Shown piece by piece: positions 32,434-59,413 of a stretch of 64,000 nt of DNA (position 1 is the first letter of the stretch; the number at the start of each line of letters is the position of its first letter). Both the position numbers and the translations under genes were made by a program. The DNA comes from Halarcobacter sp. (GTDB lineage: Bacteria; Campylobacterota; Campylobacteria; Campylobacterales; Arcobacteraceae): the NCBI GenBank assembly GCA_048571215.1, contig CP182352.1:2176001-2240000 (forward strand). The letters run 5' to 3'. The notes under the pieces are model-generated. The model ran no database searches and had not been told where the DNA came from. It saw only the letters and a program-made list of their open reading frames with translations.

Positions 32434-32577
32434 ATGCATAAATATCAAGAATTAAAATATCTTGAAAAATATAATATATGTGAAGAAGAAAAAATAAAAC
32501 TAATAGAAAACTTATATAGATTAGCACATATTAATTTCAATAATTTTATTGAGAATAATTGAAAAATTATATATTAG
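32434..32577 (+). CDS. 47-aa ORF preceding the recoded recombinase (one TGA, probably Gly)
   Basis: MHKYQELKYLEKYNICEEEKIKLIENLYRLAHINFNNFIENN(TGA)KIIY-TAG. Confidence 0.45.
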
Positions 32578-32594
32578 TATTTAAATACAGAGAT

Positions 32595-34400
32595 ATGAAT
32601 AAAAATGTAATTATTTATTGTAGAGTATCTACCGATAAACAATCTAAAACTTGAGAAAGTTTAGAAGAACAAGAAAGGCAATGTAGGGAATATTGTAAAA
32701 ATAATGGTTACCAAGTTTTAGCAGTATTTTCAGAACAATTTACTTGAACAAAAGATAGAAGACCAAAAGTTCAAGAAGCTCTAGAGTTTATAAAAAACTC
32801 TGAGCTTCAAATTAATCACATCATAGTATTAAAAATAGATAGAGTTAGTAGATGATGAATTTTAATACACGATAGCTTTAAAAATCAATTTAAAGCATTA
32901 TGAGTAACATTAAAAGATACATACTGAGTTATATGAGAAGATAAAAATGTAGTTAAAATAGATTGAATTAATACGGATAAATATAATTGGGCAAAAAGTA
33001 ACTCAAATCAAATTGCAGAAAATGTAACTGTAATGATGAGTGAAAATGAAAGAAATACTATACTACAAAGGCTTTTATGACAAGCTATAAAAAATAATAT
33101 GAGATGATACAAAGTTAGAGATTCTGAGTATGGTTATAAAAATGCAAGAATTATGACTGAGTTTTGAAAAAAAACAATACAAGTTGAAAATACAGAAGAG
33201 AGTATTTATATTAAAAAACTATTTGAGTTAAAAGCTAGATGAGATTTAAGTGATAAAAAAATTGTAGATGAAATTAATTTAATGTGATATAAATCTAGAA
33301 AAAGAGTTAAATGGAATAAAGAAAAAACACAGCCAGTATGAAGTATATGATGAAAACCTCTTAGTGTTGAGCAATTGCAAAGGTATTTAAAAATGACTAT
33401 TTATGCTTGAATTGTTTGTGAGGAATGGACTTGAAATAAACCTATTAAAGCACCTTATAATTGATTAGTTAGTTTAGATGTATGGAATAAAGCTAATAGG
33501 GGAAAGTATAGGTTAACAGAAGTAGAAGATTGAATATTTAAAATAGAGTATTTTAATGGAGAAGAAAAAATTGAAGCTCCAATTATTCAAAAACACAAAA
33601 ACTATAATCCTGAGTATCCTTATTGAAAAGTTTTAGAATGTCCTATATGTTGATGACACTTAACAGCTGAAAAATCTAAATCTAAAAATTGAAGCTATCA
33701 TCATTACTATAGTTGTAGATGAAAAAAATGAGTTAGGCACAAAAATTATTGACTAAGAAGAGATGAGATTAATGAATATATTATAGAGACTTTTTCAAAT
33801 ATTAAATTTGATAAAAATATATTAAAAATATTTAATTTAATATCAAAAGATGTTTTTGAAGATAGAAAAAAAGAGCTACAAGAGAAAGATTTATTAATAA
33901 TTCAAAATATAAAAGATTTAGAAGTAAGAAAAGAATCTATTTTAAATAATATCCCAAATATAATAAACTATCCTGATATTTTAGAAGCACAAAATAATGA
34001 GCTTCAAAAAATAAAACACACTATTTGAGAATTACAAATTAAACAAAAAAACAATACTAAGTCTTTATGATTAAAAAGATTTCAAGATTGTTCTAAAAAA
34101 ATTCTCGAACACCTTGATAAACTAGTATTACAAAGGGATAATCCAGAATTAATACAGCTTGCTTTTGATGTAGTTTTTGATTGAAAAGTAAAGTTTGAAA
34201 ATTTAAAATCTCGAACACCAATTAATAAGGAGTTTTTGGCTTTAAATACAAAAAAAGATTTTCAAAAAAATTGAAAATCTTCATTAAATCTCAAATGGTC
34301 GGAAACAAATAAAAGTTACCACACAATAAAGGATTGGATTGTTAAATTAATAGACAAAATTGATAAGTGGCAGTATGTAATTGAGTGAATAAATATTTAA
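32595..34400 (+). CDS. Large serine recombinase, 601 aa, TGA=Gly (table 25)
   Basis: Open ATG to TAA except ~32 TGA; YCRVSTDKQ, EQFT*TKDRRP, IDRVSR**, IYA*, CPIC**HL, YYSCR*. Confidence 0.93.
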
Positions 34401-34797
34401 CATACTCAGGTGCTCTGAGAAATTTGATATTAGAACTTTTTTAAATTATTTATCAATAGTTGACTTGGAGGAATTAGATGAGTTTAAAAAAACTATAATG
34501 AAAGAATGTTAATTCTTTTTAAATCAATAATAAAAATACTTCTTTATATTTTGTGACACTTAATGAGGTGCATTTGTAGTAAAATAAATATTTTACTATT
34601 AAGTTATAAAATAGTTTCTAACATAAAAAATAAAAAACTTAAATATTTTAATAAAAATTCGTTATTATATAAATAATATAATTATTAAATATCTAATTTA
34701 CTAATTATTAAGTTAATAAAATTACATTTTGTAATATTTCTGCTAAATAATATTTTTATAATATATAATAGAAAAAAAAATGAAAGAAGAGTGAATA

Positions 34798-36328
34798 ATG
34801 TCAAATAATTATGAAACCATAGAAACTTTTTTAAATAACTTTGTGGAATCAATAAGAATTACTGATTCTGCACTTGAAAAAGCAGAAGCTCGTTATAAAA
34901 GTATAGGTAATTGGCTTAATAGGGAAGAATCTGCACTTGTTAAATTTGAACCTGAAATTTATTCTCAAGGTTCAATAAGATTAAATATTGCAATTAAACC
35001 TATACATGACGATGAAGAATATGATTTAGATGCAGTTTGTTTATTAAATAGATTAGCAGTAAATATTATAAGCCAAGAAAAATTAAAAAAAATAGTTGGA
35101 GAAGAATTAGACTTATATGTAAAAGAAAATGGGTTTAAAAAACCTTTACATGAGGGAAAAAGATGTTGGACTATAAAATATTCTGATTCTGCACAATTTC
35201 ATATGGATATATTACCATCCGTCCCAGATGAAGAAGGTTTTAGACAAAAGTTATTTGAAAATAATATTACGTTAGATAGTATTAATAAATTACACACATC
35301 AAGTGCAATCTCAATCACAGATAATACTTCTTCAAACTACCCATATATTCATCATGATTGGAATAAGAGTAACCCTAAGGGCTATCATGAATGGTTTAAA
35401 GAAAAATGTAAAGTTACACAATTAACAAAAAGATTTAATTCTTTGATGGTTGCAACTGAAAGCGTTGAAGAGATACCTAGTCAAGGATATAGTTTTACCT
35501 TTACAAAAAGCAATTATGATTTTAAAAAGACATAGAGATATAATGTTTAAAGGTGATAGTGAACATAAACCTATTTCTGTAATTATAACTACTCTAGCAG
35601 CCAAAGCTTATAAAGGAACAAAAGACTTAAAAGAAACTCTAGATGATATTGTTTTTGGGATGGAAAGAGAAATTGACTGCAATGAAAAATGTATAGTTTT
35701 AAATCCAATAAATCCAAATGAAAATTTTGCAGATAAATGGGAAAACGAACCAATAAAAAAAGAAGTTTTTTTTAGATGGTTAGAACAACTTAAAATTGAT
35801 TATAAATATTTGTCATCAGATAACTATGGTAATACAAAAAATTTACTTGAAAATAGTTTTGGAACAAATGCAATACAAAAAACTTATAATGATAGCTTTG
35901 GGGTAGTTAAAAATTTAGCTATAAGAGCTAAGGAATTATTATCTTTATCTCATGTTCAAAAACCAAAATGGGAAAATAATATAAAATATAGAGTTGATAT
36001 TATTTGTATGAAAAGTAAAAATGGATGGATGTCAAAAGATTTAAAAAGTGGTGAACCAATTGAAAAAAATTGGAATTTAAGATTTGAAGCAAAGATACAA
36101 AATATAGGTTCAGGAAGAAAATTTTATTGGCAAGTTGCAAATAGTGGATTAGAAGCTAAAGATGCAAATTGTTTAAGAGGTAGCTTTTATGAAGGAGTAA
36201 TATCTAAAGGTGGAAAAGTTAGAGAAGAATCAACTAGTTACAGTGGCTCACATTTTGTAAGATGTTTTGTTATTCAAGATAATAAATGTGTTGCAATTAG
36301 TGAACCATTTATTGTAAATATTATTTAA
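34798..36328 (+). pseudogene. CBASS CD-NTase with C-terminal AGS-C-like domain, split by a single frameshift
   Basis: YSQGS, EYDLD, HMDILP, SNPKGY in ORF1; PLQKAIMILKRHRD, NPNENFADKW, ESTSYSGSHFVRC in ORF2; extra T at 35493-35496. Confidence 0.88.
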
Positions 36329-36337
36329 GGAAAAAAT

Positions 36338-37378
36338 ATGAAGTCAGTAATGAATTTTATCTTAAAAATTTTTGAACTTTTAAAGAGTGACCCAAAAACT
36401 ACAATAGCGAAATATATTTTTTTTGGAGGTATTGGACTTCGAGGTATTGGACAAATAGTTTATGAATTTTCCGATAAAGATGTTTCTCATACTCTTACAT
36501 TTTCTGATGGTATTGATTATACTGGATATCTTTTAGTCTTTATAGGTATTGTATTATTAATGATTAGATTTTTTACTATAAAAAACAATTCTCCTACTTT
36601 AGCTTATGGTATTGGCATGGAAAATATGGATATACATTTACCGTTAAAAGCAATTCCTAGTTATGAAAGATATGATTGTATAGAGTTAAGTATTCCTGAA
36701 ATAAATTCATATGATAAAAATGAAGTACTTGAAATTTATAAATTTATTAAAACACTAATTAATTCAAGAGTAGAAAATAAAAACTCACAAAAGGTTTATA
36801 TTGGAGCATTAGGAAGTTTTCCATATCTTTTTTTATTAGGAACCTTATTTAGAAATGCATATTCTCATATACAGTTACTAGATTATGATAGACATGCTAG
36901 TGGCGGAGGGAAATGGTATAAGTTACCACCATATAATGAAAGTACAGAAAAGCTATTTCACAAATTAACGTATGAAGATAAATCTATCGAAGAGAAAATA
37001 CATGAGTTAATAGAAAATGAATTAGATGAAGTAGGTATTGCATTATCATATACTTTTCCTATTAATAAAAAGGCTATTCCTGAATACTTAAGAACCAATA
37101 TACTTTATTTAGAGCATACTTATGGTATAGGGCATGACAAATTATCAAATGAGGAAGCACAAAGAAATTTAATTAATGAATTATCTAAATATATATCTTT
37201 ATTTGCTGATAATGGTAAAAAAATTCATTTATTTGTATCTGCACAATCTTCAATATGTATTAATATAGGGAAATCTTATATGAATAATTCTCATGGAACT
37301 TTAATATTACATAATTATGATAGTTCTACAATAAAATATAATTGGAATATTAAGTTTAATAAAAATAATATAGATTAA
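36338..37378 (+). CDS. 2TM-SAVED CBASS effector (Cap14-like)
   Basis: Two N-terminal TM segments; SAVED-like IHLFVSAQSSICINIG; directly after CD-NTase. Confidence 0.85.
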   Translation: MKSVMNFILKIFELLKSDPKTTIAKYIFFGGIGLRGIGQIVYEFSDKDVSHTLTFSDGIDYTGYLLVFIGIVLLMIRFFTIKNNSPTLAYGIGMENMDIHLPLKAIPSYERYDCIELSIPEINSYDKNEVLEIYKFIKTLINSRVENKNSQKVYIGALGSFPYLFLLGTLFRNAYSHIQLLDYDRHASGGGKWYKLPPYNESTEKLFHKLTYEDKSIEEKIHELIENELDEVGIALSYTFPINKKAIPEYLRTNILYLEHTYGIGHDKLSNEEAQRNLINELSKYISLFADNGKKIHLFVSAQSSICINIGKSYMNNSHGTLILHNYDSSTIKYNWNIKFNKNNID

Positions 37379-38515: not shown

Positions 38516-38550
38516 TTATACAAACTAAAATAGGTATAGATTATCTATAC

Positions 38551-40446: not shown

Positions 40447-41193
40447 ATGAAAAATATTACACACAAAGTTATTCAAGGAGGTTGTCTTGAAGTTATGAGA
40501 AAAATACCTAATAATTCAATAGATTTTATTTGTTCTGATTTTCCTTATAACATATCTTGAAAATGAGGTCTTACAATAAAGTGAGACAAAATAGTTAAAG
40601 CTGATTTTTGAGAATGGGATAAATGGGATTCGCAAGATGAATATTTAAACTTTGTATTTGAAATTTGTAACGAATACAAAAGAATATTAAAACCAAATGC
40701 TAGTTTAGTTTTATTCTTCTCTTATCATTATGCAGGATGGTTAGCTTATGAGTTACAAAGAAGATGATTATTTACATTTAGAAATCAAATTATCTTTAAC
40801 AAAGTAAATCCGCAAGTTCATTATAGAAAAAATGGTTTTAGATCATGTCATGAAGTTTGAGTTTGGTTAGTCAATGATTGATGAAATTTTAGTAAGCCAA
40901 GAGTATTTAACTTTTTGTGACAATCTAAAATGAAAAATGTTTTAAATTATGAGATTGGCAAAAATAAGCAATCTAATCATCCTACTGAAAAACCTGAATT
41001 TTTAATATGAGGTTTAATTGAAGTTTTTACAAATATTTGAGATATTGTTTTAGATAGTTTTGCAGGTGGTGGTACTACAGGAGTTGCTGCTTATAAAAAG
41101 AATAGAAGTTGTATTTCTATTGAAAAAGAAGCAGGATTTATTAATACTATTAGAAAAAGGCAAGAAAAAGCCAAAAATAAAAAGGGATATTAG
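40447..41193 (+). CDS. Beta-class N4/N6 DNA methyltransferase, 248 aa, TGA=Gly
   Basis: Open ATG to TAG except ~11 TGA; SIDFICSDFPYN, RILKP, HPTEKP, TNI*DIVLDSFAGGGTT. Confidence 0.92.
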
Positions 41194-41256: not shown

Positions 41257-41715
41257 ATGAAAAAAACAATAATATTTTTATCAACACTAAGTATCTTATC
41301 TTTTGCAAATGATGTTTATACAGATAGTAAAAACAAACTAATGTGGCAAGATAGCAAAGATGTAATGAGTATTCAAAAGCCTTATGTTACAAGAGATAAT
41401 TTTAGTAGTGGAAAATATACTAAACTTTCTGGTGATACTGCTTTTAATTATTGTGATACTTTAGTATTAAATGGTTTTAATGATTGGAGACTTCCAACAA
41501 TTGAAGAGCTTAAGGAACTAAATAAAATACAAGATGATTTATCTTTTAATAAAAGAGGTTCTTATTATTGGAGTTCAACATATAATTTAAAAGATAGTAT
41601 GAAAAATCGTTCTGTTATGGTTGGGCACGATATGAGTTTAAAAAGTCCTTTATGGGATAGAAGTTTAATAGTTGGAAATTATACAAATGTTAGGTGTGTT
41701 AGGGATATTAAATAA
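41257..41715 (+). CDS. DUF1566 (Lcl C-terminal) secreted protein
   Basis: Signal peptide, LMWQ, GFNDWRLPTIEEL, YYWSST, VRCVR. Confidence 0.88.
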   Translation: MKKTIIFLSTLSILSFANDVYTDSKNKLMWQDSKDVMSIQKPYVTRDNFSSGKYTKLSGDTAFNYCDTLVLNGFNDWRLPTIEELKELNKIQDDLSFNKRGSYYWSSTYNLKDSMKNRSVMVGHDMSLKSPLWDRSLIVGNYTNVRCVRDIK

Positions 41716-42268: not shown

Positions 42269-42733
42269 ATGACAAAGTTAGAGATAGAAAATGAGTTTAG
42301 AGATGTAGTAGGTATAAATGAAGCTAAAAAGGTATATAAAACATTAGCTAAAAAACTTCATCCTGATGTTGGAGGAAGTGATGAAGAGTTTAAAATATTA
42401 AATGCTGTATATAATGATTTTATAGAGAATAAAATACATTTTTCAAATGATAGTAAAATTGATATTGAATTAGAGAAGATTATAAGTCAAATATTACATT
42501 ATGAGGATATTACAATAGAATTAGTAGGTTCTTGGATTTGGGTTAGTGGAAATACTAAAGAGATAAAAGATAAATTAAAAGAGCTTGGTTTTAAATGGGC
42601 TAGTAAAAAGAAGATGTGGTACTATGGAGAGATGAAAGCTAAAAATCCTAATCCTAAATCTATGGATGAGATTAAAGCTAAATATGGGAGTAAGGCTTTT
42701 AAGGATAAGGAGAGAGGTAGTATAGCAGGTTGA
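42269..42733 (+). CDS. J-domain-like protein
   Basis: YKTLAKKLHPDVGG; ends in TGA stop. Confidence 0.8.
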   Translation: MTKLEIENEFRDVVGINEAKKVYKTLAKKLHPDVGGSDEEFKILNAVYNDFIENKIHFSNDSKIDIELEKIISQILHYEDITIELVGSWIWVSGNTKEIKDKLKELGFKWASKKKMWYYGEMKAKNPNPKSMDEIKAKYGSKAFKDKERGSIAG

Positions 42734-47687: not shown

Positions 47688-48750
47688 ATTACTTAATATT
47701 ATTTTATTATCTATTATAACAGTTTTTTTAGTATCTTGTGGAGGAGGTGGAGAAGATGGAGGAGATTCATCTTCATCATCGAATGTGGCAAGAGTTGAAT
47801 TAGGTCCTATCTCTAGTGCAACAGTAACTATATCATCTTTAAATGGTATAAAACTTGATGAGTACATAACAAATGAAAATGGATATTTTACTCCAAATAG
47901 AGAAAAATTATCAGAAGAAATTAACAATTATAACCCTGATATGAAATATGTAAGAATAATTTCAACTGGAGGAATTGATATTGACCCTAATGATGATGAG
48001 ATAATTGTGGAAAGTGAAAAGAATGAAGTTAAAGGGCAAGTTACTGGAATTCTTCCTATATCAAGACTCTTAGAAAATAAAGAATTTAGGATTAATGCTT
48101 TTACTTCAGTGGTTGAAAAATCTCTGAAGAATACTCTTAATATTGATGAAGAGATAATAAACAAAATTTTAGAAGAAAATAGTTTTGAAGACATAAATAA
48201 TGATGGTAATATTACTATAGATGACATAATTGATTACAAAATGTCAGAGCATGAAACAAATGCAGAAAAAACATTAATGGAATCTTGGGTACCAGTAATA
48301 ACAAGTGGTGATGAGGAAGAAGAAAATAATTTAATTAGTGAATATAAAACAACATATAATTTAATTTCACCAATTTCAGAATTACTTCGGAATGAAAAAC
48401 TTATAGTTTTCCCTTATTTAAAAAATGGTTACTACATTCAATATTCTATACAAAAAGATTATTCAGAAGCAAACTTCAAACCATATTATAATGGTGAAAA
48501 GTTAACTCTAAATAATTATGAAGTTATGTATTATCAAGAGTGTTCACTTTCAGAAGAATGTTCAAAAATTCAAAAAATATATTTTGATGGAGAAAGATAT
48601 TTTGTTGATTATTTAAAAGTAAAAAAAACATATTTTATTGATGAAGAAAAAATAACTGGATTTAGACAAAAAGAAGAAGATATAAAAAAAGAAATTGAAC
48701 AAATCGAAGAAGAAATTGAAAATATAAAAACTACTGAATTGTCTTTATAA
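47680..48750 (+). CDS. Hypothetical lipoprotein
   Basis: Lipobox LVSC followed by GGGG/S linker; DINNDGNITIDD Ca-binding-like loop. Confidence 0.8.
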   Translation: MNKLLNIILLSIITVFLVSCGGGGEDGGDSSSSSNVARVELGPISSATVTISSLNGIKLDEYITNENGYFTPNREKLSEEINNYNPDMKYVRIISTGGIDIDPNDDEIIVESEKNEVKGQVTGILPISRLLENKEFRINAFTSVVEKSLKNTLNIDEEIINKILEENSFEDINNDGNITIDDIIDYKMSEHETNAEKTLMESWVPVITSGDEEEENNLISEYKTTYNLISPISELLRNEKLIVFPYLKNGYYIQYSIQKDYSEANFKPYYNGEKLTLNNYEVMYYQECSLSEECSKIQKIYFDGERYFVDYLKVKKTYFIDEEKITGFRQKEEDIKKEIEQIEEEIENIKTTELSL

Positions 48751-48773: not shown

Positions 48774-49025
48774 TTATTTAAGTTCCCTAAAAAACTCACA
48801 TATATCAACATCTAAAATCTGGGCAATTTTATGAAGTTGAGTAATATTAAAATGCCTTTTATTTGTATATAATTCAGCAGAACTAATTAAACTTGGAGAT
48901 TTATTCCCCATTTCAAAAGATAAAGCCAATTGACTTAATTCAGCTTCTTTTCTAAGTCTAGCAACATTTTTACCAATCAAGATATGTAATTCATCTTCAC
49001 TTAAATTATTCAGTTTTTTATTCAT
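48774..49025 (-). CDS. XRE-family HTH regulator
   Basis: IGKNVARLRKEAELSQLAL..LHKIAQILDV. Confidence 0.9.
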   Translation of the reverse strand: MNKKLNNLSEDELHILIGKNVARLRKEAELSQLALSFEMGNKSPSLISSAELYTNKRHFNITQLHKIAQILDVDICEFFRELK

Positions 49026-49352: not shown

Positions 49353-49433
49353 TCTATTTTTTGCACTCATTTTAGAAATGTGATAAAATCTATATATCTC
49401 CTAAAAATAATTTATAAATCTAAATTATGGAAA

Positions 49434-51026
49434 ATGACTGAAATATCATGAGGTAATTTTGAATCAAATGAAAATATTCCAAAATTAAAACAAACAAGTC
49501 CAGAAGATATTCAAAAAGCGTGAGAAGATATAGAATATTCAAATCATTTACAAAAAGTAAATGATGTTTTAAATGTACTTAATTTTCCTAATAATGCTGA
49601 AAAAAAATTTAGAACTATTTTAGATAAGCAAGATGATAAAACTTTGATTGAACTATCAAAACAATCAAAATGAGATATTCAATCTTTTTTGCTAAATAAT
49701 AGAAAAACTGAAAAATCTACAGAAGAAGAAAAGCATTTAGATAAAAATGTAAATATAAACTCTAAAATTTCAAAAATCAAATCAACTTTTTCTCCTGAGA
49801 TTCTAAGTAATAATCCTGATATTGAAAACCTAATTAACTCTTTTGATTTACAAAAAGATGAATGAGAAAACATAAATATTATTGATAAAATTCTAAATCT
49901 TTTAAAAGAGCCTTGAAAACTAAAATCAATAGTTGATGATTTATGATGAGCAGATAAAAACAATCCAAAATATTTAGAATTCAAAGAAAGTTTAATTTGA
50001 ATAGATTCTAGTTTTGAAAACTATTTTAATGATCTTGAAAATATAAACTCAAAAGATGAGTTAAATACAAATAATATAGTTTGAGAGATAGAAAAAGAAT
50101 CTTGATGACTTGAAACAATTGATTTAAATAGTTCTAATCCTGTTTCAAAACTAAGTTTAATTTGAAGTGATTATAGTTTTGATGAAAAAATTGATAAAGG
50201 GGCGCTTTGAGAGTTAATGAATACAAGTGAAAATAAATTAAAAGAGATTCAAAATAGTATAACTATTTTGAAAAATGTATATACTCCCTTCGATAGTTTA
50301 TTAAATCAAATCAAAACTAACTGGCAAAAACAAGATTTAAAAGAGACATTAAAAAACCCTTTATCTAGATTTCCAAGCAGTACATTTGCAAATTTAGAAA
50401 AGGTTTATAAAGATATTTGAATTGATTCAAATATACAGCTAAAACAATTTGATATATCAAGTTTAGCTGATGTAAAAAATGCTAATGAATTAAGAGTTAA
50501 AATTGAAAATATCAAAACCAAATTTGAACAAATAAAACTTCAAATTCTAGAAAGAAAAGATGAGATTTTAAAAGATTATAAAGCAAATGTAAAAGAGCTT
50601 TTACAAAGAAAAGAAAAAGCCAAAGAAAAACAACTTGAAGTATTAAAATTTATGAAAGCTAGTTGATTTGATTTAATCCCAAAATCTATTACTGATAAAC
50701 TAATATTAAATCTTCAAAATAATTCATTTCAAATACAAGGTTTAGATTTAAATGTACAAAACATAGATTTAAAAAACTGACATTTTTGAGAATCATTAAA
50801 TATAGACAATGAAACTTGATTTAATACTCTAGCTAAAACAAATCTAGTTAAGTTTATGAATAAACTTATATCATGAAATATTGAAGAGCCTTTAAGTGTT
50901 GACGCTATCGCAAATTGAATTTCTGTAACTAATTCAGCAGATTTAAAAAATCAATTTAGAGAATCTTGAATTGTTGATTGATTGGGTTGGAAGTATATTA
51001 AGATTGTTGAGAATTTGAAAAGTTAA
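49434..51026 (+). CDS. Hypothetical protein, 530 aa, TGA read-through (Gly)
   Basis: 1593 bp free of TAA/TAG with ~22 in-frame TGA; includes track ORF 50217..50420; terminator follows. Confidence 0.88.
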
Positions 51027-51075: not shown

Positions 51076-51384
51076 TTAAGATTTAATACCCTTTTTTAGA
51101 ATATGGTAAATCTTTTTATAAGAAATCCAGATTAATACTACAACTCCTATTATTACATAAAGGAGAAACTCCATATTTTCTTTTTCAACAATTATTATAT
51201 AAAGCGTTGAAAAACATTTTAATAAAGACACTATAGATACTAAGACAATTATAATATCTTCTATATTTAACTCTCTTTTTAAAGATAGAGCAACAAAAAC
51301 GTATATAACCAATACAATTAAACTTATAATTTCAATTATCATAATAAAAACCTTATAAATAATTGAGCAATATAAATATAGCAA
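51076..51384 (-). CDS. Small membrane protein
   Basis: Three hydrophobic segments; real start probably MIIEII. Confidence 0.6.
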   Translation of the reverse strand: MLYLYCSIIYKVFIMIIEIISLIVLVIYVFVALSLKRELNIEDIIIVLVSIVSLLKCFSTLYIIIVEKENMEFLLYVIIGVVVLIWISYKKIYHILKKGIKS

Positions 51385-51407
51385 TAAATATTTTTATGTG
51401 TGTCTTA

Positions 51408-52737
51408 GAGACCGTTCAAAAATCTGTGTCAAGTCACCTAAAGTAACAAATCCATACTTGTTACAACTCTAAATAATTATCCAATCTCCCTTCGAAAAAT
51501 ATAGCAAGTTGGGAGATTGTTAAACTCCAATTATGCACTGGCTGAGTCCATTTTACTTTTGCATTTAATATTCCCATATACAACAATTTTAAAAGTGAAT
51601 TCTCATTAGGGAAAGCTCCTTTTGTTTTGGTTAATTTTCTAAATTGCCTATGTACAGATTCAATAATATTTGTAGTGTACATAATCTTTCTTATCTCTTT
51701 TGGATATTTAAAATAATAAGATAAATTCTCCCATTTATTTTGCCAAGATTGAAGTACTATGGGATATCTTTTCCCCCATTTTTCATCTAGTTTTAAAAGC
51801 TCATCTTCTGCAAGTTCTTTTGTTGTTGCTTGATAAACAAGTTTTAAATCTCTCATAAACTCTTTTTGGTCTTTAGAAGCTACATACTTCAATGAATTAC
51901 GAATTTGATGTACAACACAAAGTTGTACTTCGGTATTTGGATATATTGTTTTAATAGCTTCAGGAAAGCCTTTAAGACCATCTACTGATGCAATTAGTAT
52001 ATCTTCTAATCCTCTATTATTTAAATCAGTAAGAACACTAAGCCAGAAGTTTGCTCCTTCACTTTGGGATAAATATAATCCTAATATATCTTTTTTACCA
52101 TCAATTCCCATCCCTAAAACTGTGTAAACTGCTTTACTCACATACTTCCCACCATCTTTTATTTTATAATGTATCGCATCAAGCCATACAAATGGATAAA
52201 TAGCTTCTAAAGGTCTACTTTGCCAAGCTTTTACCTTATCTATAATTTTATCTGTAATAGTGCTTATTGTTGCACTTGATAATTGTATTTGATATATCTC
52301 TTCAATATGTTTTATAATATCTCTATAGCTTAATCCTAAGCCATACATAGATAATATCTTTTCTTCTATTTCATTAGACATTGTTGTTTGGTTTTTCTTT
52401 ACAAGTTGTGGTTCAAAAGAACCTGTTCTATCTCTTGGAGTATTCAATTCAAAGGAACCACTTGTTGATTTTATTGTTTTAGAGCTTTTACCATTCTTTC
52501 TATTTTTATTTCCTGCAAATACATCTTGAGTTATATGAGAATCTAATTCTGCTTCTAAAGCAGCTTCAACTAATTGTTTTACTAATGGAGCAAGTACTCC
52601 ATCTTTACCATTGATATTTTTACCTGCAAGTAAATCTTGTACAGCTTCATTAAAATCAAATTGTTTTTTCTTTTCCATCTATATCAATCCTTATAATATT
52701 TATTATATCAGACTGACACAGATTTTCTAACACTCCC
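51408..52737 (-). mobile_element. IS256-family insertion sequence
   Basis: Imperfect terminal IRs sharing AAAATCTGTGTCA; 8-bp target duplication GTGTCTTA at 51400-51407 and 52738-52745. Confidence 0.95.
51461..52678 (-). CDS. IS256 (Mutator) transposase
   Basis: PRDR, VWLDA, VDGLKG, QLCVVHQIRN, YTTNIIES. Confidence 0.97.
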   Translation of the reverse strand: MEKKKQFDFNEAVQDLLAGKNINGKDGVLAPLVKQLVEAALEAELDSHITQDVFAGNKNRKNGKSSKTIKSTSGSFELNTPRDRTGSFEPQLVKKNQTTMSNEIEEKILSMYGLGLSYRDIIKHIEEIYQIQLSSATISTITDKIIDKVKAWQSRPLEAIYPFVWLDAIHYKIKDGGKYVSKAVYTVLGMGIDGKKDILGLYLSQSEGANFWLSVLTDLNNRGLEDILIASVDGLKGFPEAIKTIYPNTEVQLCVVHQIRNSLKYVASKDQKEFMRDLKLVYQATTKELAEDELLKLDEKWGKRYPIVLQSWQNKWENLSYYFKYPKEIRKIMYTTNIIESVHRQFRKLTKTKGAFPNENSLLKLLYMGILNAKVKWTQPVHNWSLTISQLAIFFEGRLDNYLEL

Positions 52738-52745
52738 GTGTCTTA

Positions 52746-53040
52746 ATTTTATTTTGTATTTGTTTGTTGATTTTATTTTAGTGTTATTCGTTTTATCTTA
52801 GTTTTTTTAATTTAATTTTTTACTGTTTTTATTTATTTAGTTTTTAAATATTTTTTAGTTTTTATTTTGTTCTTTTAACTTTGTTTTACTATTTTTTATT
52901 TTAATGTTTTTGTAATTTTAATTTTGTTCTATTTTAATGTTTTTGTAATTTTTTTGATTCTTATTTTTTTAACTTTTGTTTTACTATTTTTATTTTTTCT
53001 TTAATTTTATTTTTTCTGTTTTTTATTTACTTAATTTAGA
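52746..53040. repeat. T-rich low-complexity tract with internal duplications
   Basis: Predominantly T on + strand; TTTTAATGTTTTTGTAATTTT twice, TTTGTTTTACTATTTTT twice. Confidence 0.8.
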
Positions 53041-53249
53041 TTGCTCTTAAATTAGCCAATTAAGACTAATCAAGAGTAGTATATCTTAATTATTTATCTT
53101 TGTCTAGTAAGTTCTAAAAAATATAAATTTATTCACAGAATAAAACAATAAAAAAAGCATTAATTTTTAAATTAATAACTTATTTTCTCTTCTAATCCTA
53201 TCTCAACAAACCAAGTGCTATTATTCTCCCCTAAAAAAAGGAGAATAGC

Positions 53250-54191
53250 ATGAAACTAACTGAAGTTATAAAAGATTTTAAATTTCATTGTGAATATGAA
53301 AAAAACTTAAGTGAAAAAACATTACAAGCGTATAATATAGATTTAAAACAATTTCAAGAGTTTAAAGATTATAAAAGTATAGATATTAAAGATTTTGATA
53401 AATACAAATTAAAAGATTATATTCAAAGTTTATATACACAAGACTTTAAAGCAAAAACTATAAAAAGGAAAGTTGCAGTTTTAAAAGCTCTTTTTACATA
53501 TTTAGAATTTGAAGAAATGATTTTAGTTAGTCCATTTAGAAAAATGAGAGTTTCGATTAAAGAACCTAAAAATCTACCTAAAACAATGGAACTAAAAGAG
53601 GTAAGAAAAGTTCTAAAATATTTATATAAATCAAAAGAAGAATTTTTAGATAAAGATGTTTATACATACAAAGCATTGGTAAGAGATATAGCAATAATAG
53701 AGATTTTATTTTCAACAGGTATAAGAGTATCTGAGTTATGCAGTATAAAACAAAAGAATATAAATTTACAAGCTGGGATTATCAAAATAAAAGGTAAAGG
53801 AGATAAAGAAAGGATAATACAAATATGTGATAATGAAGTAAAAAAAATACTTAGAGAATATATAAATTTATTTAGTATTCAAATGGAAAAAACAGAATAT
53901 TTTTTAGTTAATAGATTAGCAAATAAAACTTCAGAACAATCTGTTAGACTTATGATAAAAAAATATCAAAAGCTATGTGGTCTTGATAAACATATTACTC
54001 CCCATATGTTTAGACATAGCTTTGCTACTTTACTTTTAGAAGAAGGTGTTGATATACGATATATACAGCACATGTTGGGACATTCTTCAATCTCTACAAC
54101 CCAAATTTATACTCAAGTTAATATGAAACAACAGAAGAAGATACTGAATACAAAACATCCAAGGAGGGGTTTAAGTTTTGTAGATGAATGA
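53250..54191 (+). CDS. Xer-like tyrosine recombinase
   Basis: TGIRVSEL, KGKGDKER, TPHMFRHSFAT, LGHSSISTTQIY; TGA stop. Confidence 0.95.
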   Translation: MKLTEVIKDFKFHCEYEKNLSEKTLQAYNIDLKQFQEFKDYKSIDIKDFDKYKLKDYIQSLYTQDFKAKTIKRKVAVLKALFTYLEFEEMILVSPFRKMRVSIKEPKNLPKTMELKEVRKVLKYLYKSKEEFLDKDVYTYKALVRDIAIIEILFSTGIRVSELCSIKQKNINLQAGIIKIKGKGDKERIIQICDNEVKKILREYINLFSIQMEKTEYFLVNRLANKTSEQSVRLMIKKYQKLCGLDKHITPHMFRHSFATLLLEEGVDIRYIQHMLGHSSISTTQIYTQVNMKQQKKILNTKHPRRGLSFVDE

Positions 54192-54193
54192 TT

Positions 54194-54209
54194 GATAATA
54201 GGTAGTTAT
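54194..54209 (+). repeat. Putative recombination site, left
   Basis: GATAA-TAGGTAG-TTAT; exact inverted copy at 57447-57462. Confidence 0.75.
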
Positions 54210-56331
54210 GATTAAGAAATTATTTGACCGTGAACATGAAAGACATCTTTTAAAAACTTTTTTTGAGAGTAATGATTCCTTTTTTATTGTAATTGGAGAA
54301 AGTGGTGTTGGTAAAAGTTCTATTATCCAAAATACTTTAATAAAAAACTTTTCTTTATCAGAAATAATATCAATATCTTTTAAACCTGAAAATAATATAA
54401 ATAATTTTATTGAAGATGAAGATTTTCTTAAAAATCGGATACACAGTTTATATAGTGAATGTAGAAAAAGAAATATAAATATAGTAAAAAATATAACGAT
54501 AGATTTTAAAGATAAACTTTCAACAATATCGACTAGTGTAGGTATTTCAGGACCGGTAATAGGTTTGGGATTTTCAAATAAAAATATAACTGTTGATGAA
54601 GATTATATTATTCAGTTTGATAAAATAATATATGGTAAACCATATAAAATAATATATTTTTCTAATATAGAACTAGCTAATGCAAATGACTTAAAAATTG
54701 TTGAGCTTTTTTTTAAGTTAGTTAGAAATAAAAAATTAAATATAAAAATGATATTTGAAGTAGGTACATTAAGTGAAAATACAAATTCTACTTTTTTAAA
54801 AAAGCTTTTAGAAGAACATGATGTTTTAGTAAAGCCTTTTAATGAATATTTTACAAATGACTTTTATAAGTTCTATCATAAAGCTAATCCACCGATTGAG
54901 CTATTTGCAAAATCAAAGGGCAATCCCTTTTATATAGTTCACTATTCAAAAAGTATAAAAAATTTTGCAATATTTGATTTAATTAAATCAAAACTTGCTT
55001 CATTAGATATAGACTTATTAAATATAGTCTATACATTATATATACTTGGAGGTTCTGCATCTATTAAAGACTTCAAAGAATTAAGTGAAATTAAAATTGA
55101 TACATTATTATTTCAAATTGAACAATTAGAATTACTTGAAATTCTAACAATCTATAAAAATAAAGTTTCATTTTTTCACTCATTTTTTTCTATATTTTTA
55201 GATACGAAAGACTCAGTAGTTTTAACAGAAATTAGTATTAGAATTAAAAATAGGTTGTTAAATGATTTAGAAAATATTCAAGATGATAATATCCTTTTAC
55301 TGATAAATCTTTTATATAAAACTAATGAAATTAAGAAATTAAGAAAGGTTGGATGGGATTTAGCAAAAAAAACATATTTAGAGCAAAAATATAATTTAAC
55401 AATTTTTATTTGTAAGATACTAATAGAAAATATTTCTGAAAAAAAGTTAAAAACTTTTCCTTCTCTTTTACTAATTCAGTCTTCTATATTAATTGGTAAT
55501 GCTCAAAATTATTTAAAGTACCTAAAAAAATTTGTAAGTATAGATATTAATAATAAATATCTTGTTTCATGCATCAAATCACAGTTACTTTACCAAGAAA
55601 ATAAGTTTCAAGAATCAGTAAATGAAATAGAGAGAACTTTAAAAGAAATTAATAACCAAAGGCTTGAAATAATTCTTTTAGGACTGAATTGTAGTAATTA
55701 TATTGCACTAGGAAACTTTAAAGAAGCTAAAAGTAATTTCATACAAGCAAAAAGCCTTGCAGAAATATTAAATTATAAAGAAATTCTTTTTGAACTTTTA
55801 CGACTTAGTCCTAAGATATTTGGTTGGAAAGTGGGAAGTGAGCTAATATATAAATTTACTAACAATAAAATATCTAATAGTTATGAATATACTAAATACA
55901 AATCTAAACATAATTTAGGTTTTGCAAAAATTCTTACAACAGAAGGTAAAGAAGGACTTGATGAACTATTAGAATCCAAAAGTTATTTTGAAATAAACAG
56001 TATGCCAGAAGTCACTTATTCAGTTGTAGGATTGTCTGTTTATTTAATACTAAAAGAATCATTAGATGATGCAATGTTCTATTTATTAGATGCAAAAAAG
56101 TTTTATACTAAAGCTTTTAATATTTTAAATAATAGAGATAAACCTTTATCTGACCCTATACTTGTATATAAATCAAACTATAACTTATCTTTAATTTATT
56201 TAATTTTAGGAGATTATCCAAATGCAAAGAAGTTTTATAATAATATTTCTATACCAACTTCGGCTTCTTTCTATGAAGCAAGAATAAAGAAAAATGAATG
56301 GTTATATAAAACTATAAAAGAAAAAAGATAA
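54208..56331 (+). CDS. P-loop NTPase with helical/TPR-like C-terminus (STAND-like)
   Basis: FDREHE, GESGVGKS, SKGNPFY. Confidence 0.7.
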   Translation: MIKKLFDREHERHLLKTFFESNDSFFIVIGESGVGKSSIIQNTLIKNFSLSEIISISFKPENNINNFIEDEDFLKNRIHSLYSECRKRNINIVKNITIDFKDKLSTISTSVGISGPVIGLGFSNKNITVDEDYIIQFDKIIYGKPYKIIYFSNIELANANDLKIVELFFKLVRNKKLNIKMIFEVGTLSENTNSTFLKKLLEEHDVLVKPFNEYFTNDFYKFYHKANPPIELFAKSKGNPFYIVHYSKSIKNFAIFDLIKSKLASLDIDLLNIVYTLYILGGSASIKDFKELSEIKIDTLLFQIEQLELLEILTIYKNKVSFFHSFFSIFLDTKDSVVLTEISIRIKNRLLNDLENIQDDNILLLINLLYKTNEIKKLRKVGWDLAKKTYLEQKYNLTIFICKILIENISEKKLKTFPSLLLIQSSILIGNAQNYLKYLKKFVSIDINNKYLVSCIKSQLLYQENKFQESVNEIERTLKEINNQRLEIILLGLNCSNYIALGNFKEAKSNFIQAKSLAEILNYKEILFELLRLSPKIFGWKVGSELIYKFTNNKISNSYEYTKYKSKHNLGFAKILTTEGKEGLDELLESKSYFEINSMPEVTYSVVGLSVYLILKESLDDAMFYLLDAKKFYTKAFNILNNRDKPLSDPILVYKSNYNLSLIYLILGDYPNAKKFYNNISIPTSASFYEARIKKNEWLYKTIKEKR

Positions 56332-56456
56332 ATCTAATTAATGATGTTTATGACAAAAAAACTTGGCCTGTGAGTAAATTTAATTTTACACTTTCTAAGT
56401 TAAGTTTTTTTGACTTAAATTTAAAAATCATTACAAATGAGAATCTACCTAAAGAG

Positions 56457-57443
56457 CTATAGCTTTTTTTGTCTTTTTACTGAATATTTGATTAATTGTT
56501 CAAACATATCCTCAAAACTTTTAAAAAATGTATTAGCTACTTTTGAAAATGCAACTCCTGTTAAAAAAGGACCTGTATTTATTTCTAATAAATAAGCATC
56601 CCTATTTTTTATATCATATCTAAAATCCATACGACAATAATCTTTAATTTCTAAAAAATCGATTAGTTTTTTAGCTATATTTACAAGTGTGACATCCTTT
56701 ATACACTTTAATTCCCTAACAAATCCTGATTCTTTTTCTTTTGCATAAGAAGAAATATAGTTACCCTCATATTCTTGCCTTAAAGGTAAAATCTTCCAGT
56801 TATCAGTATGAATACATGCAACAGTAACCTCTTCGCCTAGTAATGCTTCTTCAATCAAAATATCATCAATACCATTTTCCAATAAAACTTTTATATTACC
56901 AATAGCTTCTTCATAAGAGTAAGCTAAAGGGTTTTTTACAAACTCCATTCCAATGCTATTATCAAACTTAGATGGTTTAATAAATAAAGGAAGAGAAAGG
57001 CTAGAAATAGAATCAAATGAAAAGTCATACTTATTACTAAATAATATTGAATTTGAAGTGGTTATACCTTTACTTGTCACAACTTTTTTTAATAAATCTT
57101 TATCTTGACATAACGTTTGAACAAAGGAAGAAGAACCTATATAGGGCTTTTTTATCAAGTGCAAAAATGAAGGAAGATGAGAACCAATAAATATATTAGA
57201 TCCATCTGTTAGATTCCAAAAAATTGAATTATCATATTTTTCTATAAGATTAAATATTTCTTTTCTATTTAATTTATGATAATCTAACAATATAACATTA
57301 AATCCTATACTTTCAAGAGAAGACTTTACTATATTAATTTCATCTAATGATGCTAAAAACCTTGAGAAAACATAAGGATTTTTCAATCCTTTATTTTTTT
57401 TAATCCAATCCTCTCTTGATTCAAAAAATAAAAATATATTCAT
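56457..57443 (-). CDS. ATP-grasp ligase (D-Ala-D-Ala ligase-like)
   Basis: PYIGSS, PLFIKP, LIEE, CRMDFR, LLEINTGP. Confidence 0.85.
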   Translation of the reverse strand: MNIFLFFESREDWIKKNKGLKNPYVFSRFLASLDEINIVKSSLESIGFNVILLDYHKLNRKEIFNLIEKYDNSIFWNLTDGSNIFIGSHLPSFLHLIKKPYIGSSSFVQTLCQDKDLLKKVVTSKGITTSNSILFSNKYDFSFDSISSLSLPLFIKPSKFDNSIGMEFVKNPLAYSYEEAIGNIKVLLENGIDDILIEEALLGEEVTVACIHTDNWKILPLRQEYEGNYISSYAKEKESGFVRELKCIKDVTLVNIAKKLIDFLEIKDYCRMDFRYDIKNRDAYLLEINTGPFLTGVAFSKVANTFFKSFEDMFEQLIKYSVKRQKKL

Positions 57444-57573: not shown

Positions 57574-57984
57574 ATGTTAAATAAATTAAATACAAATACT
57601 TTAAAAGAGTCTTATATCCTTTCTAATGAAGAAATAAAATTATCTAGACAATTCATTATAGAAAATCAAAATATAATGCAAAAAGATTTTGAAGAAAGTC
57701 TATCGGAAAACAAATTATTAATTTTAATTAACCCTATACATGTACCAATAAAAGAAAATTATATACTTGCTATGAAAGCAATAGTTATTATGAAAGAAAA
57801 TTGAGCAAAAAGATTAGATGAATTTGATAATTATTTCAATATAACAGATAATAAACTATCTGATTATCATGATAAAATAAATAAATTAAAAAAGGAAGTG
57901 GATAAACAACAGAAACTTGATGAGAAAAAAGCAAATACATTAATGAATAAGATTAAGAGTTGAGATTATTTAGATGAAAAATAA
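57574..57984 (+). CDS. Hypothetical protein, 136 aa if TGA=Gly
   Basis: Track ORF continues through two TGA to TAA; terminator at ~58012-58052. Confidence 0.65.
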
Positions 57985-58104
57985 AAATCAGCAATTCTAA
58001 AAAACAAAGCAAAAAAATCAAGGTAGTATAAATCTCCACCTTGATTTTTTTTAGCTAATTGTTTTTTGCCCTTAAATCACTTTTATTTTTTAATATTTGT
58101 GATT

Positions 58105-58437
58105 ATGAATACAAATATACTTATGGATTTATCAAGAAATACTCTTTGAGCTTGATATTTAGATGTTCAATTTTTAGTTGAACTTGTTGAAAAATACAAT
58201 CTTGATATAGATGATATATCTGAAAATATTGAATTCTGTTTTTGAAAAGAGTTTAAAACAGATATAAACTATTTCATTTATGAAGCTTTAACTCAAATTG
58301 CTTCAAAATTTATTGAATCAAATATTGAATTATTTGAATCTGAAAGTAATGAATTTGAAATCTATACAAATTTTTTTGATAGTCATATATATTTCACTTC
58401 GGAAATTGTTCAAAGTGAATTTGAGAACTTTTATTAA
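58105..58437 (+). CDS. Acidic hypothetical protein, 110 aa if TGA=Gly
   Basis: MNTNILMDLSRNTL*A*YLDVQFL...; three TGA, no GGN codons seen. Confidence 0.75.
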
Positions 58438-58456
58438 AAAGTTCTCTTTTTAAACT

Positions 58457-58627
58457 TTAATAATACCTCTTCAAACACTCTTCACACATCTTATGAGAAA
58501 TAGAATAACCTTTAGCATCCCATTTCTCAGTAAATTCATCTAAACTATCACATCAAGGACATAGCTCAATATATTTTCTATCTTCATCTATATATAAAAT
58601 ATTCTCTTTTGCTTCTCTATAAAACAT
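58457..58627 (-). CDS. 56-aa putative Zn-binding protein, TGA=Gly
   Basis: MFYREAKENILYIDEDRKYIELCP*CDSL...ISHKMCEECLKRYY. Confidence 0.65.
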
Positions 58628-59047
58628 ATAAATATAAATTAATTGGTATTTTAATTGAGTGCTTTGGCGAACAAAAAAAGCGGAGAAAGCTATCACCGCA
58701 AAACCAAACATATTAGATGTATCAATCACATAAAATAAGTGGAAATGATAACTTCCTCCACTCTTTAAATGATTGATTTAAAATAATTCTATTATGTATG
58801 ATTTTGCTTTTTTACTATAAACATTTTTCTAAATATTTCAAATATATTTTAGAACTTCTAAAATGTTTGTACAACACATTTATACAAAAAAATAGTATTT
58901 TAAAATTTAAAGACAATTACTATATTGATGGTATATTAAATTAGCATTAAAGAGCCTAAAAATAGTATTTTTTTGACAAAAAATAAAATTTTATGCTTTA
59001 ATTAATTTCGTTGCGCAACGACTTTAAAATTTAAATAAAATATTATA

Positions 59048-59413
59048 TTGAATACATTTGAAACCCTTTTAGAGATAAAAACAGCAAAAAAGAATTTATC
59101 TCTAAAAGCAATATATATAAAACATCCAAGTAAAAAATTAAAATGAACCTTTTATATTTACTACTTTGATAAAATTAGTCACTCTTTACATATCAACTGA
59201 ATAAATAAAAAAACTATTTCAGAAAGTTCGCTAGAAGAGATTATAAATAGAGTATTTAAAAAAGAAGAAAATAAAAATAAAAAACCAAGTGTTTTTTACT
59301 TTTCTATGCAAGATGATATTGTGTATATTGATAGAGTTAAATTAAAAGCTCAAACAAATAAAAAATGAGAAATTATAAAACTACTTATTGATAGTTCAAA
59401 ATTATACTCTTAA
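59048..59413 (+). CDS. Basic hypothetical protein, ~121 aa if TGA=Gly
   Basis: TTG start; three TGA, no TAA/TAG in 366 bp; start uncertain. Confidence 0.6.

Follow-up and report, generated by a model that had tools for sequence, protein, structure and literature searches.

A stretch of 64,000 nt from Halarcobacter sp. (contig CP182352.1, positions 2,176,001 to 2,240,000 of the forward strand; hereafter the window, whose numbering is used for coordinates) was analysed. From ~29.9 kb to just beyond its end, the window holds one integrative mobilizable element (IME) of ~34 kb, in which six open reading frames (ORFs) with in-frame TGA codons, predicted to be read as Gly, lie among genes that are free of in-frame TGA. 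The original prediction, a reading of the window from its letters alone, had pointed to four gaps in the ORF track, starting at 32434, 40447, 49434 and 57574, as long frames dense in TGA and devoid of TAA and TAG. This description held for three long ORFs, but the fourth block consists of three short ORFs, and position 32434 is the start of a gap and is out of frame with the gene that follows. The ORFs that need TGA as a Gly codon are the following:

32595..34400, plus strand (block 1): large serine recombinase, with TGA as 32 of its 36 Gly codons; PF00239 at 5e-19, and PF13408.
40447..41193, plus strand (block 2): N6/N4 DNA methyltransferase (CcrM/DpnA-like), with TGA as 11 of 24 Gly codons; PF01555 at 3e-38.
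49434..51026, plus strand (block 3): protein of 530 amino acids (aa; P0005), the hallmark of the element family, with TGA as 22 of 26 Gly codons.
57574-57984, 58066-58437 and 59048-59413, plus strand (block 4): three short ORFs with 2, 3 and 3 TGA, respectively, directly upstream of mobC.

Under translation table 25 (TGA = Gly) the long frames span 32559..34400 (613 aa, 32 TGA), 40447..41193 (248 aa, 11 TGA) and 49380..51026 (22 TGA), and the three short ones have the limits and in-frame TGA counts listed above. Under table 11 the same stretches are gaps between ORFs, open solely when TGA is a sense codon. Given the base composition, the probability of finding no TAA or TAG by chance is 10^-23.4 for the recombinase, 10^-8.5 for the methylase and 10^-20.1 for the 530-aa gene, and the remaining five frames of these stretches contain 15-67, 7-25 and 4-56 such codons, respectively. 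The recombinase most likely starts at ATG 32595, in agreement with its database homologues of 601 aa. When the complete genome (a single contig of 3,614,513 bp) was scanned, four TGA-rich frames were found in ORF gaps, three of them being the long ones of the island. The fourth (genome positions 963761-964336, 5 TGA) lies inside an array of a ~98-nt repeat and was not counted as a gene. TGA makes up 73 of the 94 Gly codons across the six ORFs, versus 0 of 337 across 21 neighbouring genes of the island. Two codes do stand side by side in one element, as had been proposed. In the three long genes its share ranges from 46 to 89%; the corresponding value is 61% in L021, a code-25 contig that is described below.

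The meaning of TGA was deduced from alignments. The window's recombinase was aligned with 28 homologues. G occupied its 32 TGA columns in 135 of 328 cells where the homologues had 27-40% identity and in 51 of 142 where they had ≤24%, against a background of G at non-G columns of 131/5834 and 112/2846, respectively (i.e. 2-4%). W was present in 1 of those 142 cells of the distant homologues, and the true Trp columns of the recombinase retained W in 62 of 64 cells of close homologues. At the TGA columns, W fills 228 of 346 cells of close homologues and G another 66; since the database translated TGA as Trp, TGA must be present there too. The top match (P0006, 92% identity) is probably not an independent homologue but the very gene of the window translated with code 4, because it clusters with a protein encoded on a 13,656-bp Logan contig, and a contig of that same length matches the window without any difference. 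In the methylase, the TGA codons for G107 and G198 align to G of CcrM (6pbd). For the 530-aa gene, the 22 TGA columns of the window could be followed in seven other DNA copies (153 cells), where TGA was found in 65 cells, GGN in 41, other codons in 47 and TGG in none. TGA and GGN swap at identical columns of this codon alignment, and its TGG columns retain TGG in 12 of 14 cells of the other copies. These alignments indicate that TGA encodes Gly in the TGA genes of the island and that TGG still encodes Trp, which argues against code 4. In this, the original prediction that TGA falls on conserved Gly positions, with Trp still supplied by TGG, was borne out.

Large serine recombinases combine an N-terminal resolvase catalytic domain, which bears the nucleophilic Ser, with a recombinase domain and a zinc ribbon, and the recombinase of the island is of this type. 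PF13408 scored 26.6 bits (cut-off 25.3) and PF07508 19.4 bits, slightly below its cut-off of 21.1; residues R22, S24, R95 and R98 are invariant across the 29 sequences. The methylase matches PF01555 with 132 bits (cut-off 26.7) and CcrM (6pbd) at 1.7e-29, as expected for a beta-class N6/N4 DNA methyltransferase. Its translation contains 'DFPYN' and 'DSFAGGGTT', which we take to be the (D/S)PPY-type catalytic motif and the FxGxG motif for S-adenosylmethionine binding. TGA-bearing homologues of this gene are present in two related loci, L020 (78% identity, 9 TGA) and L023 (81%, 5 TGA). The 530-aa protein has 69 homologues and gave no match in Pfam, PHROGs or NCBIfam that would assign it a function. 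Its AlphaFold2 model (pLDDT 81.8) is mainly helical and found no match in the PDB with Foldseek at E≤0.001; the best VIA-align Z score, 10.1 (helical bundles, flagellin D1 and tip proteins of type III secretion systems), is below the level that this tool treats as meaningful for helical folds. Searches of PLSDB plasmids, GenBank phages and IMG/VR for relatives of the recombinase or the 530-aa protein returned none except two distant recombinases (21-27% identity), and no phage structural family was found among the island proteins in the Pfam and PHROGs scans.

The host reads TGA as a stop. It has prfB (509 bits; cut-off 370), and TGA terminates 323 of its 2310 long ORFs (14%). ARAGORN found 45 tRNAs in the genome, among which the sole UCA anticodon belongs to tRNA-Sec, and all 44 matches of the Infernal tRNA model are among those of ARAGORN; tRNA-Gly(UCA) was not found in the complete host genome with either program. 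The traits of a code-25 organism (lack of release factor 2 [RF2], a tRNA-Gly(UCA) and TGA-dense housekeeping genes) are thus not those of this bacterium, which has 3 real TGA-rich frames in 3.6 Mb. The genes at 42269, 53250 and 60672 end in TGA, as the original prediction had remarked in assigning the backbone to code 11. It had also seen no suppressor tRNA in the window, and this agrees with the searches: ARAGORN found no tRNA in the 64 kb, the Rfam scan at E≤1 found none in 27-64 kb, and with the ARAGORN thresholds lowered to 90% the island still gave none (settings of 80% or less yielded noise only, e.g. a 'SeC' call within the STAND gene). A UCA tRNA was likewise not found in the whole related island of genome G417 nor in 18 other related loci (L001-L010, L012, L013, L018-L023, L025), where the only tRNA-type genes are those for tRNA-Leu(caa), Lys(ttt), Asn, Met and Arg(tcg), and one tmRNA. 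The host is therefore a code-11 organism in which only the TGA genes of the island are written in code 25, and, having prfB and no tRNA-Gly(UCA), it could not make the TGA-rich proteins alone.

One way in which these proteins might be made in the same host after all is conditional recoding, with a suppressor tRNA-Gly(UCA) that a helper, be it a conjugative element or a phage, provides in trans, perhaps together with a blunting of RF2. Excision by the recombinase, methylation and the 530-aa protein would then be switched on only in the presence of a helper able to mobilise an element that has no type IV secretion system (T4SS) of its own. This is the main rival of the interpretation developed below, and we hold it to be unlikely. 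It has a parallel in the recoded phages with their own suppressor tRNAs that Borges et al. (10.1101/2021.08.26.457843) describe in standard-code hosts. It is opposed by the tRNA searches (no UCA tRNA but tRNA-Sec in the complete host genome, none in two complete islands and the 18 other loci), by an intact prfB, as 32 TGA codons in one gene would need near-complete suppression, and by the lack of relatives in the plasmid, phage and IMG/VR collections.

The side-by-side arrangement of two codes could in principle result from the joining of two organisms in a chimeric assembly or from contamination of the bin, given that the genome comes from a sediment metagenome. We regard this as hardly credible. 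The stretches 31500-43351 and 44809-50738 are each covered by an independent Logan contig (13,656 bp and 5,930 bp, respectively) without a single difference, and the depth is even over TGA-rich and TGA-free parts. These contigs derive from 4 public runs (2 samples of 1 study), which are possibly the source data. Five of the six block junctions in the covered stretch are bridged by long contigs at even depth, which answers the call of the original prediction for a check of the junctions; the exception is the right end of block 3 (51026). Contigs break at a set of 303-bp tandem repeats, and from 50738 onwards the cover consists of short overlapping pieces. The mixed layout was found again in independent assemblies, including one with a contig of 1.05 Mb.

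Related elements were collected with a profile of the 530-aa protein in species-representative genomes (10 loci) and with a profile of the recombinase in metagenomes (32 loci, 8 of them at 58-65% identity). Nine of the ten genome loci have titles of Campylobacterota (Sulfurimonadaceae, Arcobacter, Campylobacterales, four Sulfurimonas, Sulfuricurvum and Campylobacteraceae), and one is titled 'bacterium'. Judged by their ORF content, 17 of 19 loci have TGA-rich ORFs beside TGA-free ones of at least 100 aa; of the other two, one is a 2.6-kb locus in which none passed the threshold, and L021 is TGA-rich throughout. In a family-by-family comparison of the window with L004, L002, L018, L020 and L023, the same families proved to be TGA-rich from locus to locus (recombinase, 20-28 TGA; methylase, 5-9; 530-aa protein, 5-22; two small ORFs, 2-4) and the same families TGA-free (small DnaJ, helix-turn-helix [HTH] regulator, MobC, the body of the relaxase, coupling protein, the membrane DnaJ protein, XerC-like integrase and DUF4143). 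The two small ORFs are 58066-58437 and 59048-59413, with TGA-bearing homologues in L004, L002 and L018; for the ORF at 57574-57984 there was just a weak match in L003 (33% identity). Related loci have additional TGA-rich genes that the window lacks, an HD-domain protein in L002 (11722-12378, minus strand, 13 TGA) and a 298-aa protein in L004 (5741-6637, minus strand, 14 TGA).

Gene order is circularly permuted among the loci. In L018 and L020 it runs MobC-relaxase-coupling protein-DnaJ-recombinase, and in the window, L019 and L023 tyrosine integrase-DUF4143-recombinase. The latter order also holds, by position, for G417 (the genome of L004, on the 1.05-Mb contig, titled Campylobacterales), where the layout runs from a gene of integrase size to the coupling protein, DnaJ and a full tRNA-Arg(tcg); the assignment of its serine recombinase (520 aa, 20 TGA) is by position, length and TGA count. 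A distance of ~1 kb separates the 530-aa gene from the small ORFs in L004, and the 6.4 kb of the window at 51076-57443 are extra relative to this locus, which means that part of the interleaving is due to secondary insertions. The element family is rare: among 401 sampled Campylobacterota genomes, the 530-aa gene was present in 4 including the host (one of the other three being a weak match, E 2e-4) and the recombinase in 1. Taken together, the comparison points to the code split as a trait of the element family, with the TGA genes belonging to its backbone. The original prediction had suggested comparing related islands block by block for presence or absence: the code split did recur in them, and the blocks are family backbone and not separate captures.

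The ratio of nonsynonymous to synonymous substitutions (dN/dS) was estimated by NG86 under table 25, between copies that both lie in mixed-code contexts. The recombinase gave 0.05 (L018 vs L023; dS 1.06), the 530-aa gene 0.19 (L006 vs L018) and the methylase 0.15 (window vs L020); the values of TGA-free controls from the same elements were 0.23 (coupling protein) and 0.15 (MobC). The frames of the TGA genes are open in all full-length copies. Such purifying selection implies that these genes are translated somewhere. A recombinase tree, for which G and W were masked, unites the 15 sequences of the mixed-code type in one clade (SH-aLRT 97); seven of them were read from mixed-code loci, and the rest are database proteins of ~600 aa whose context was not seen. 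A neighbouring clade of six (SH-aLRT 97) includes the L021 type of 576-581 aa, with support lacking at the fork that joins both clades. A single clade means that a TGA-coded recombinase has long been inherited within the element lineage. As a separate observation, the host genome contains a decayed partial copy of the 530-aa gene (G000:C1:720990-721514; 56% identity over residues 357-529), with 6 TGA and 7 TAA/TAG in 175 codons, ~3.5 kb from a pair of tRNA-Asn genes (717370-717557); it probably remains from an earlier member of the element family.

These data bear on the idea that the TGA genes are silent cargo, captured from a code-25 genome and drifting untranslated. The host is indeed unable to read them, and their codon usage is like that of a code-25 genome. 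Yet frames of 248-601 codons free of TAA and TAG (with chances of openness of 10^-8 to 10^-23) persist in at least 8 copies at 46-66% identity, a divergence of related loci that excludes very recent copies; dN/dS is 0.05-0.19, TGA interchanges with GGN, the recombinases form a single clade, and the copy that is truly decayed in the same genome is full of stops. Clade and selection together rule out silent cargo, which we consider very improbable, as well as the repeated and recent capture that the original prediction had put forward: the TGA genes are backbone in 17 of 19 loci and are under purifying selection like that of the TGA-free genes.

The other features of the element, listed from left to right, are the following:

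29893..29912 and window-equivalent 64268-64287 (L050:1268-1287): exact direct repeat of 20 bp, candidate attachment (att) core bracketing the island.
29930..31030, plus strand: tyrosine integrase (PF00589 at 2e-22), TGA-free, with a TAA stop; left edge of the island.
31165..32415, plus strand: AAA_14/DUF4143 ATPase (Pfam), TGA-free.
34798..37378, plus strand: TGA-free cargo resembling a cyclic-oligonucleotide-based antiphage signalling system (CBASS), with CD-NTase (SMODS) at 34798-35535, AGS-C at 35450-36328 and SAVED effector at 36338-37378.
37424-38074 (plus), 38174-38515 (plus) and 38551-39723 (minus): three TGA-free ORFs without family match.
41257..41715, plus strand: Lcl_C-domain protein (Pfam), TGA-free.
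42269..42733, plus strand: small DnaJ-like backbone gene with TGA-free body and TGA stop; homologues of 67-95% identity in L004, L002, L005, L020 and L022.
42914..48750, plus strand: TGA-free cargo, a 1401-aa PKD-repeat protein and two ORFs without assigned function.
48774..49025, minus strand: HTH_3 regulator of the backbone, TGA-free, upstream of the 530-aa gene.
51076..57443: TGA-free segment between blocks 3 and 4, with a small ORF at 51076-51384 (minus), an IS256/Mutator transposase at 51461-52678 (minus), a XerC-like integrase at 53250-54191 (plus, TGA stop), a STAND/TPR NTPase at 54208-56331 (plus) and an ATP-grasp protein at 56457-57443 (minus).
60308..60670, plus strand: MobC-like relaxosome accessory protein, TGA-free.
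60672..61520, plus strand: MobA/VirD2-type relaxase with TGA-free body and TGA stop.
61618..63141, plus strand: type IV coupling protein (VirD4/TraG-like), TGA-free; nearest to the CD1115 family, with 233.8 bits vs a cut-off of 250.
63142..63891, plus strand: membrane protein with a DnaJ domain, backbone, TGA-free; last conserved gene ahead of the right end of the island.

Compared with genomes of the same genus, the island is inserted DNA, as G402 joins position ~28698 to ~64395 and G406 joins ~25092 to ~64886. Together with the matches to PF00589, PF03432, PF05713 and PF02534, and with the 20-bp direct repeat and a tRNA-Arg fragment at the ends, this is the composition predicted for an IME. 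The fragment lies at L050:1304-1406 (window-equivalent 64304-64406), where the 48-nt 3' part of a tRNA-Arg(tcg) and ~50 nt of flank are 97% identical to the region of the actual gene at genome positions 2904088-2904190; a ~98-nt repeat, which has many copies in the host genome and in G402, adjoins it. No mating-pore gene (VirB4-type) was found by Pfam among the 29 island proteins scanned. An element with relaxase and coupling protein and no such gene would depend on a helper, a point in favour of the in-host recoding introduced above.

In L019 (59% identity) and L023, a homologue of the tyrosine integrase lies beside the serine recombinase and a DUF4143 gene, and in both loci DUF4143 homologues of 75-78% identity stand directly 5' of the recombinase. 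G417 has genes of 377 aa and 416 aa in the places of the tyrosine integrase and the DUF4143 ATPase, respectively, a correspondence by position and length only. Since the integrase lies at the edge of the island and the island of G417, with its like layout, ends at tRNA-Arg(tcg), integration in the code-11 host looks driven by the tyrosine integrase, and the serine recombinase would therefore not be needed there. The gene at 29930..31030 is thus likely the integrase used in the code-11 host, and we read the element as entering tRNA-Arg-type sites by means of this TGA-free enzyme, the serine recombinase being internal. The XerC-like integrase shares 74% identity with a gene of L020. Repeats flanking each of the TGA blocks were sought, and none was convincing.

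Several further observations were made on individual genes. The relaxase frame (window 60672-61565, and those of L004, L020 and L018) has a TGA 11-31 codons ahead of the first TAA or TAG in four of five elements, so that a cell reading UGA as Gly would make a relaxase extended at its C-terminal end; in the window this extension overlaps the coupling-protein ORF. The CBASS cyclase is split into two overlapping ORFs (SMODS/DncV-like, 34798-35535, and AGS-C, 35450-36328), which may be due to a frameshift or to an indel of the assembly, or may be genuine; the contigs of one run show 1-nt differences near 35427, but this run is rich in such indels. The PKD gene contains at 43290-44838 at least five near-identical tandem repeats of 303 bp (98-99% identity), with a sixth beginning at 44805-44838. 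A comparison of the Lcl_C protein with the TGA-rich 298-aa protein of L004 gave no significant similarity (E 0.11). Two hairpins resembling Flavo-1 RNA (Rfam) flank the methylase and the Lcl_C gene (41803-41866, minus strand, 41.7 bits, gathering threshold 42, E 7e-7; and 39815-39877, minus strand, 27 bits), with no such match in L018, L020 and L023.

The link to code-25 bacteria foreseen by the original prediction was found in L021, a 35-kb metagenome contig of 22% GC. With a floor of 60 aa for ORFs its coding density is 0.19 under code 11 vs 0.90 under code 25, and with a floor of 80 aa 0.11 vs 0.89. It encodes DnaK, AlaRS, RuvA, CofD and a pilin, each with many TGA codons for Gly, and TGA represents 214 of its 350 Gly codons, near the share in the TGA genes of the window. 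By the evidence of its sequence, L021 is a genuine code-25 chromosome. Its recombinase (10022-11801) is 64% identical to that of the window, and the ORF ends within the 3' end of a tRNA-Lys(ttt) gene. The element genes next to it, for a primase and an HTH protein, are all rich in TGA. The recombinases of the mixed-code elements differ from it in being ~20 aa longer and island-internal, with no tRNA-like sequence after them.

A second link comes from the coupling protein, for which the best 120 of 350 homologues at E≤1e-30 were compared. In 2 of these 120, conserved Gly columns contain W (TGA read under code 4): P0239 (61% identity) at 10 of 21 such columns and P0238 at 4 of 21. TGA-containing versions thus do exist of this gene, which in the elements of Campylobacterota is free of TGA. 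The homologues with a named source are from Poseidonibacter, Arcobacter, Sulfurimonas and Sulfuricurvum. Neither the code-25 chromosomal recombinase nor the TGA-coded variants of the coupling protein are predicted by recoding within the host. The CD1115-type family of coupling proteins belongs to conjugative elements of monoderms. The T4SS of Patescibacteria is described as being of the monoderm conjugation type, and this system, together with scattered relaxases, is read there as acquired mobile elements (PMC12102498). We take the CD1115 likeness as a lead only.

The interpretation that we prefer, and to which we give an even chance, is that of a two-host element whose genes are expressed in one host or the other according to the genetic code. 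It takes up the alternative that the original prediction had offered, a shuttling between differently coded hosts. The element lineage would regularly pass through cells that read UGA as Gly, i.e. code-25 Gracilibacteria or Absconditabacteria. The genes on which the element relies in the code-11 host (tyrosine integrases, MobC, relaxase, coupling protein, DnaJ-like proteins and defence cargo) would be kept without in-frame TGA, and the recombinase, the methylase, the 530-aa protein and also two or three of the small ORFs near mobC would be made only in the UGA=Gly cell. There, the serine recombinase may integrate the element and the methylase may protect it. The code would thus act as a host-specific expression switch, with the TGA genes silent in the code-11 host. 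In plasmids, the origin of transfer (oriT) and the leading region are expected immediately upstream of mobC, and the identities of the TGA genes (an integrase, an orphan methylase and ORFs beside mobC, where a leading region would be expected) would suit arrival in a new cell. From this pattern we infer residence of the element in code-25 cells, and the direction and route of its transfer. A more specific version, which we advance tentatively and with rather less than even confidence, is that the element alternates between a code-25 epibiont belonging to the candidate phyla radiation (CPR; Gracilibacteria or Absconditabacteria) and a Campylobacterota host, and that TGA locks the integrase, the methylase and putative oriT-proximal genes.

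The same gene identities would also fit a delivery in one direction. The element would then reside in Campylobacterota, and its TGA genes would act after entry into a code-25 epibiont or predator by conjugation or DNA uptake, with no regular return, either as establishment and anti-restriction genes acting in the recipient or as a weapon of the host against its epibiont. The TGA genes are of recipient-acting kinds (integrase, orphan methylase, small ORFs directly upstream of mobC), the genes for DNA processing on the donor side are TGA-free, and conjugation-type T4SS and scattered relaxases are described in Patescibacteria (PMC12102498). The selection data speak against this scenario, because without return the selection in recipients cannot purify the copies in Campylobacterota, and yet dN/dS is 0.05-0.19 and the frames are intact. 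One-way delivery is, in our judgement, distinctly improbable.

Several results weigh against passage of the element through two hosts. No code-25 genome was seen to contain the complete element, in a survey where such genomes were not searched directly, and L021 shares the recombinase only. A tRNA-like mimic of the phage-type attachment site (attP), looked for 3' of the recombinase genes in six mixed-code elements, was not found. Each of the 10 genome loci with the 530-aa gene has a code-11 context, a fact that also favours recoding within the host, and just 3 of the 400 other sampled Campylobacterota genomes have this gene, one of them by a weak match. Finally, TGA is not avoided as a stop among the TGA-free genes: 3 of the 21 (the genes at 42269, 53250 and 60672) end in it, equal to the host rate of 14%, with the next TAA or TAG 8-15 codons on. 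This indicates that they are not tuned to use under both codes.

The island can be compared with several known systems. UGA=Gly is code 25 of Gracilibacteria and Absconditabacteria/SR1, for which Liu et al. (2023, mBio, PMC10746230) describe code-25 prophages. The island is like code-25 organisms in having TGA at conserved Gly positions, TGG for Trp, a similar share of TGA and a relative of its recombinase (64%) at a code-25 tRNA gene, and unlike them in that it sits in a TGA=stop chromosome, with a fixed subset of genes alone using code 25. The same authors predict that code-11-compatible phages infect code-25 CPR bacteria. As described there, these phages cross the boundary between code 11 and code 25 with genes without in-frame TGA, as would the TGA-free genes of the island, but they avoid TGA throughout and stack different stops (PMC10746230), whereas the island is non-phage and has TGA-dense beside TGA-free genes. 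It is not compatible with both codes as a whole, since six ORFs carry 73 in-frame TGA.

Recoded phages provide a further comparison. Their recoding is reportedly of TAG to Gln or of TGA to Trp, usually with suppressor tRNAs of their own, and is said to be concentrated in late or lytic genes. In such phages and prophages of standard-code hosts, standard and recoded genes occur together, which suggests translational control (Borges et al., 10.1101/2021.08.26.457843). The island differs from them in that its recoding is TGA=Gly, it is mobilizable, and neither phage genes nor a suppressor tRNA were found in it; recoded phage genes with a phage suppressor tRNA, the marks of a recoded prophage, are thus not what it contains. 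With IMEs and islands at tRNA genes it shares an integrase at the edge, the series mobC-relaxase-coupling protein without mating-pore genes among those found, defence cargo (CBASS, STAND) and a tRNA-Arg sequence at the far edge. It departs from them in having a second integrase (the large serine recombinase) and further backbone genes in a form that its host is unable to read. No description of mixed-code islands in Campylobacterota was found in a full-text literature search, supplements aside. Compared with code-25 organisms and with both kinds of phage, the island stands apart as a non-phage mobilizable element with TGA=Gly, whose gene-by-gene partition between two codes is fixed and shared by a whole family that resides in Campylobacterota chromosomes.

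Divergent genetic codes are commonly regarded as an obstacle to gene exchange. Here, one element family carries both codes, with both sets of genes under selection, and resides in chromosomes of the ordinary code whose cells are unable to read one of these sets. Under either explanation, standard annotation overlooks a 601-aa integrase, a methylase and a conserved protein of 530 aa. If recoding by a helper in the same host were true, UGA=Gly suppressor tRNAs, so far unrecognised, would exist on helpers in standard-code bacteria. If the two-host interpretation is true, there would be regular DNA traffic between code-25 bacteria of the candidate phyla and Campylobacterota (Arcobacter, Sulfurimonas and Sulfuricurvum), and the genetic code would serve as a switch of gene expression outside phages. 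These elements would then tag likely pairs of host and epibiont for lineages that have almost no cultured members.

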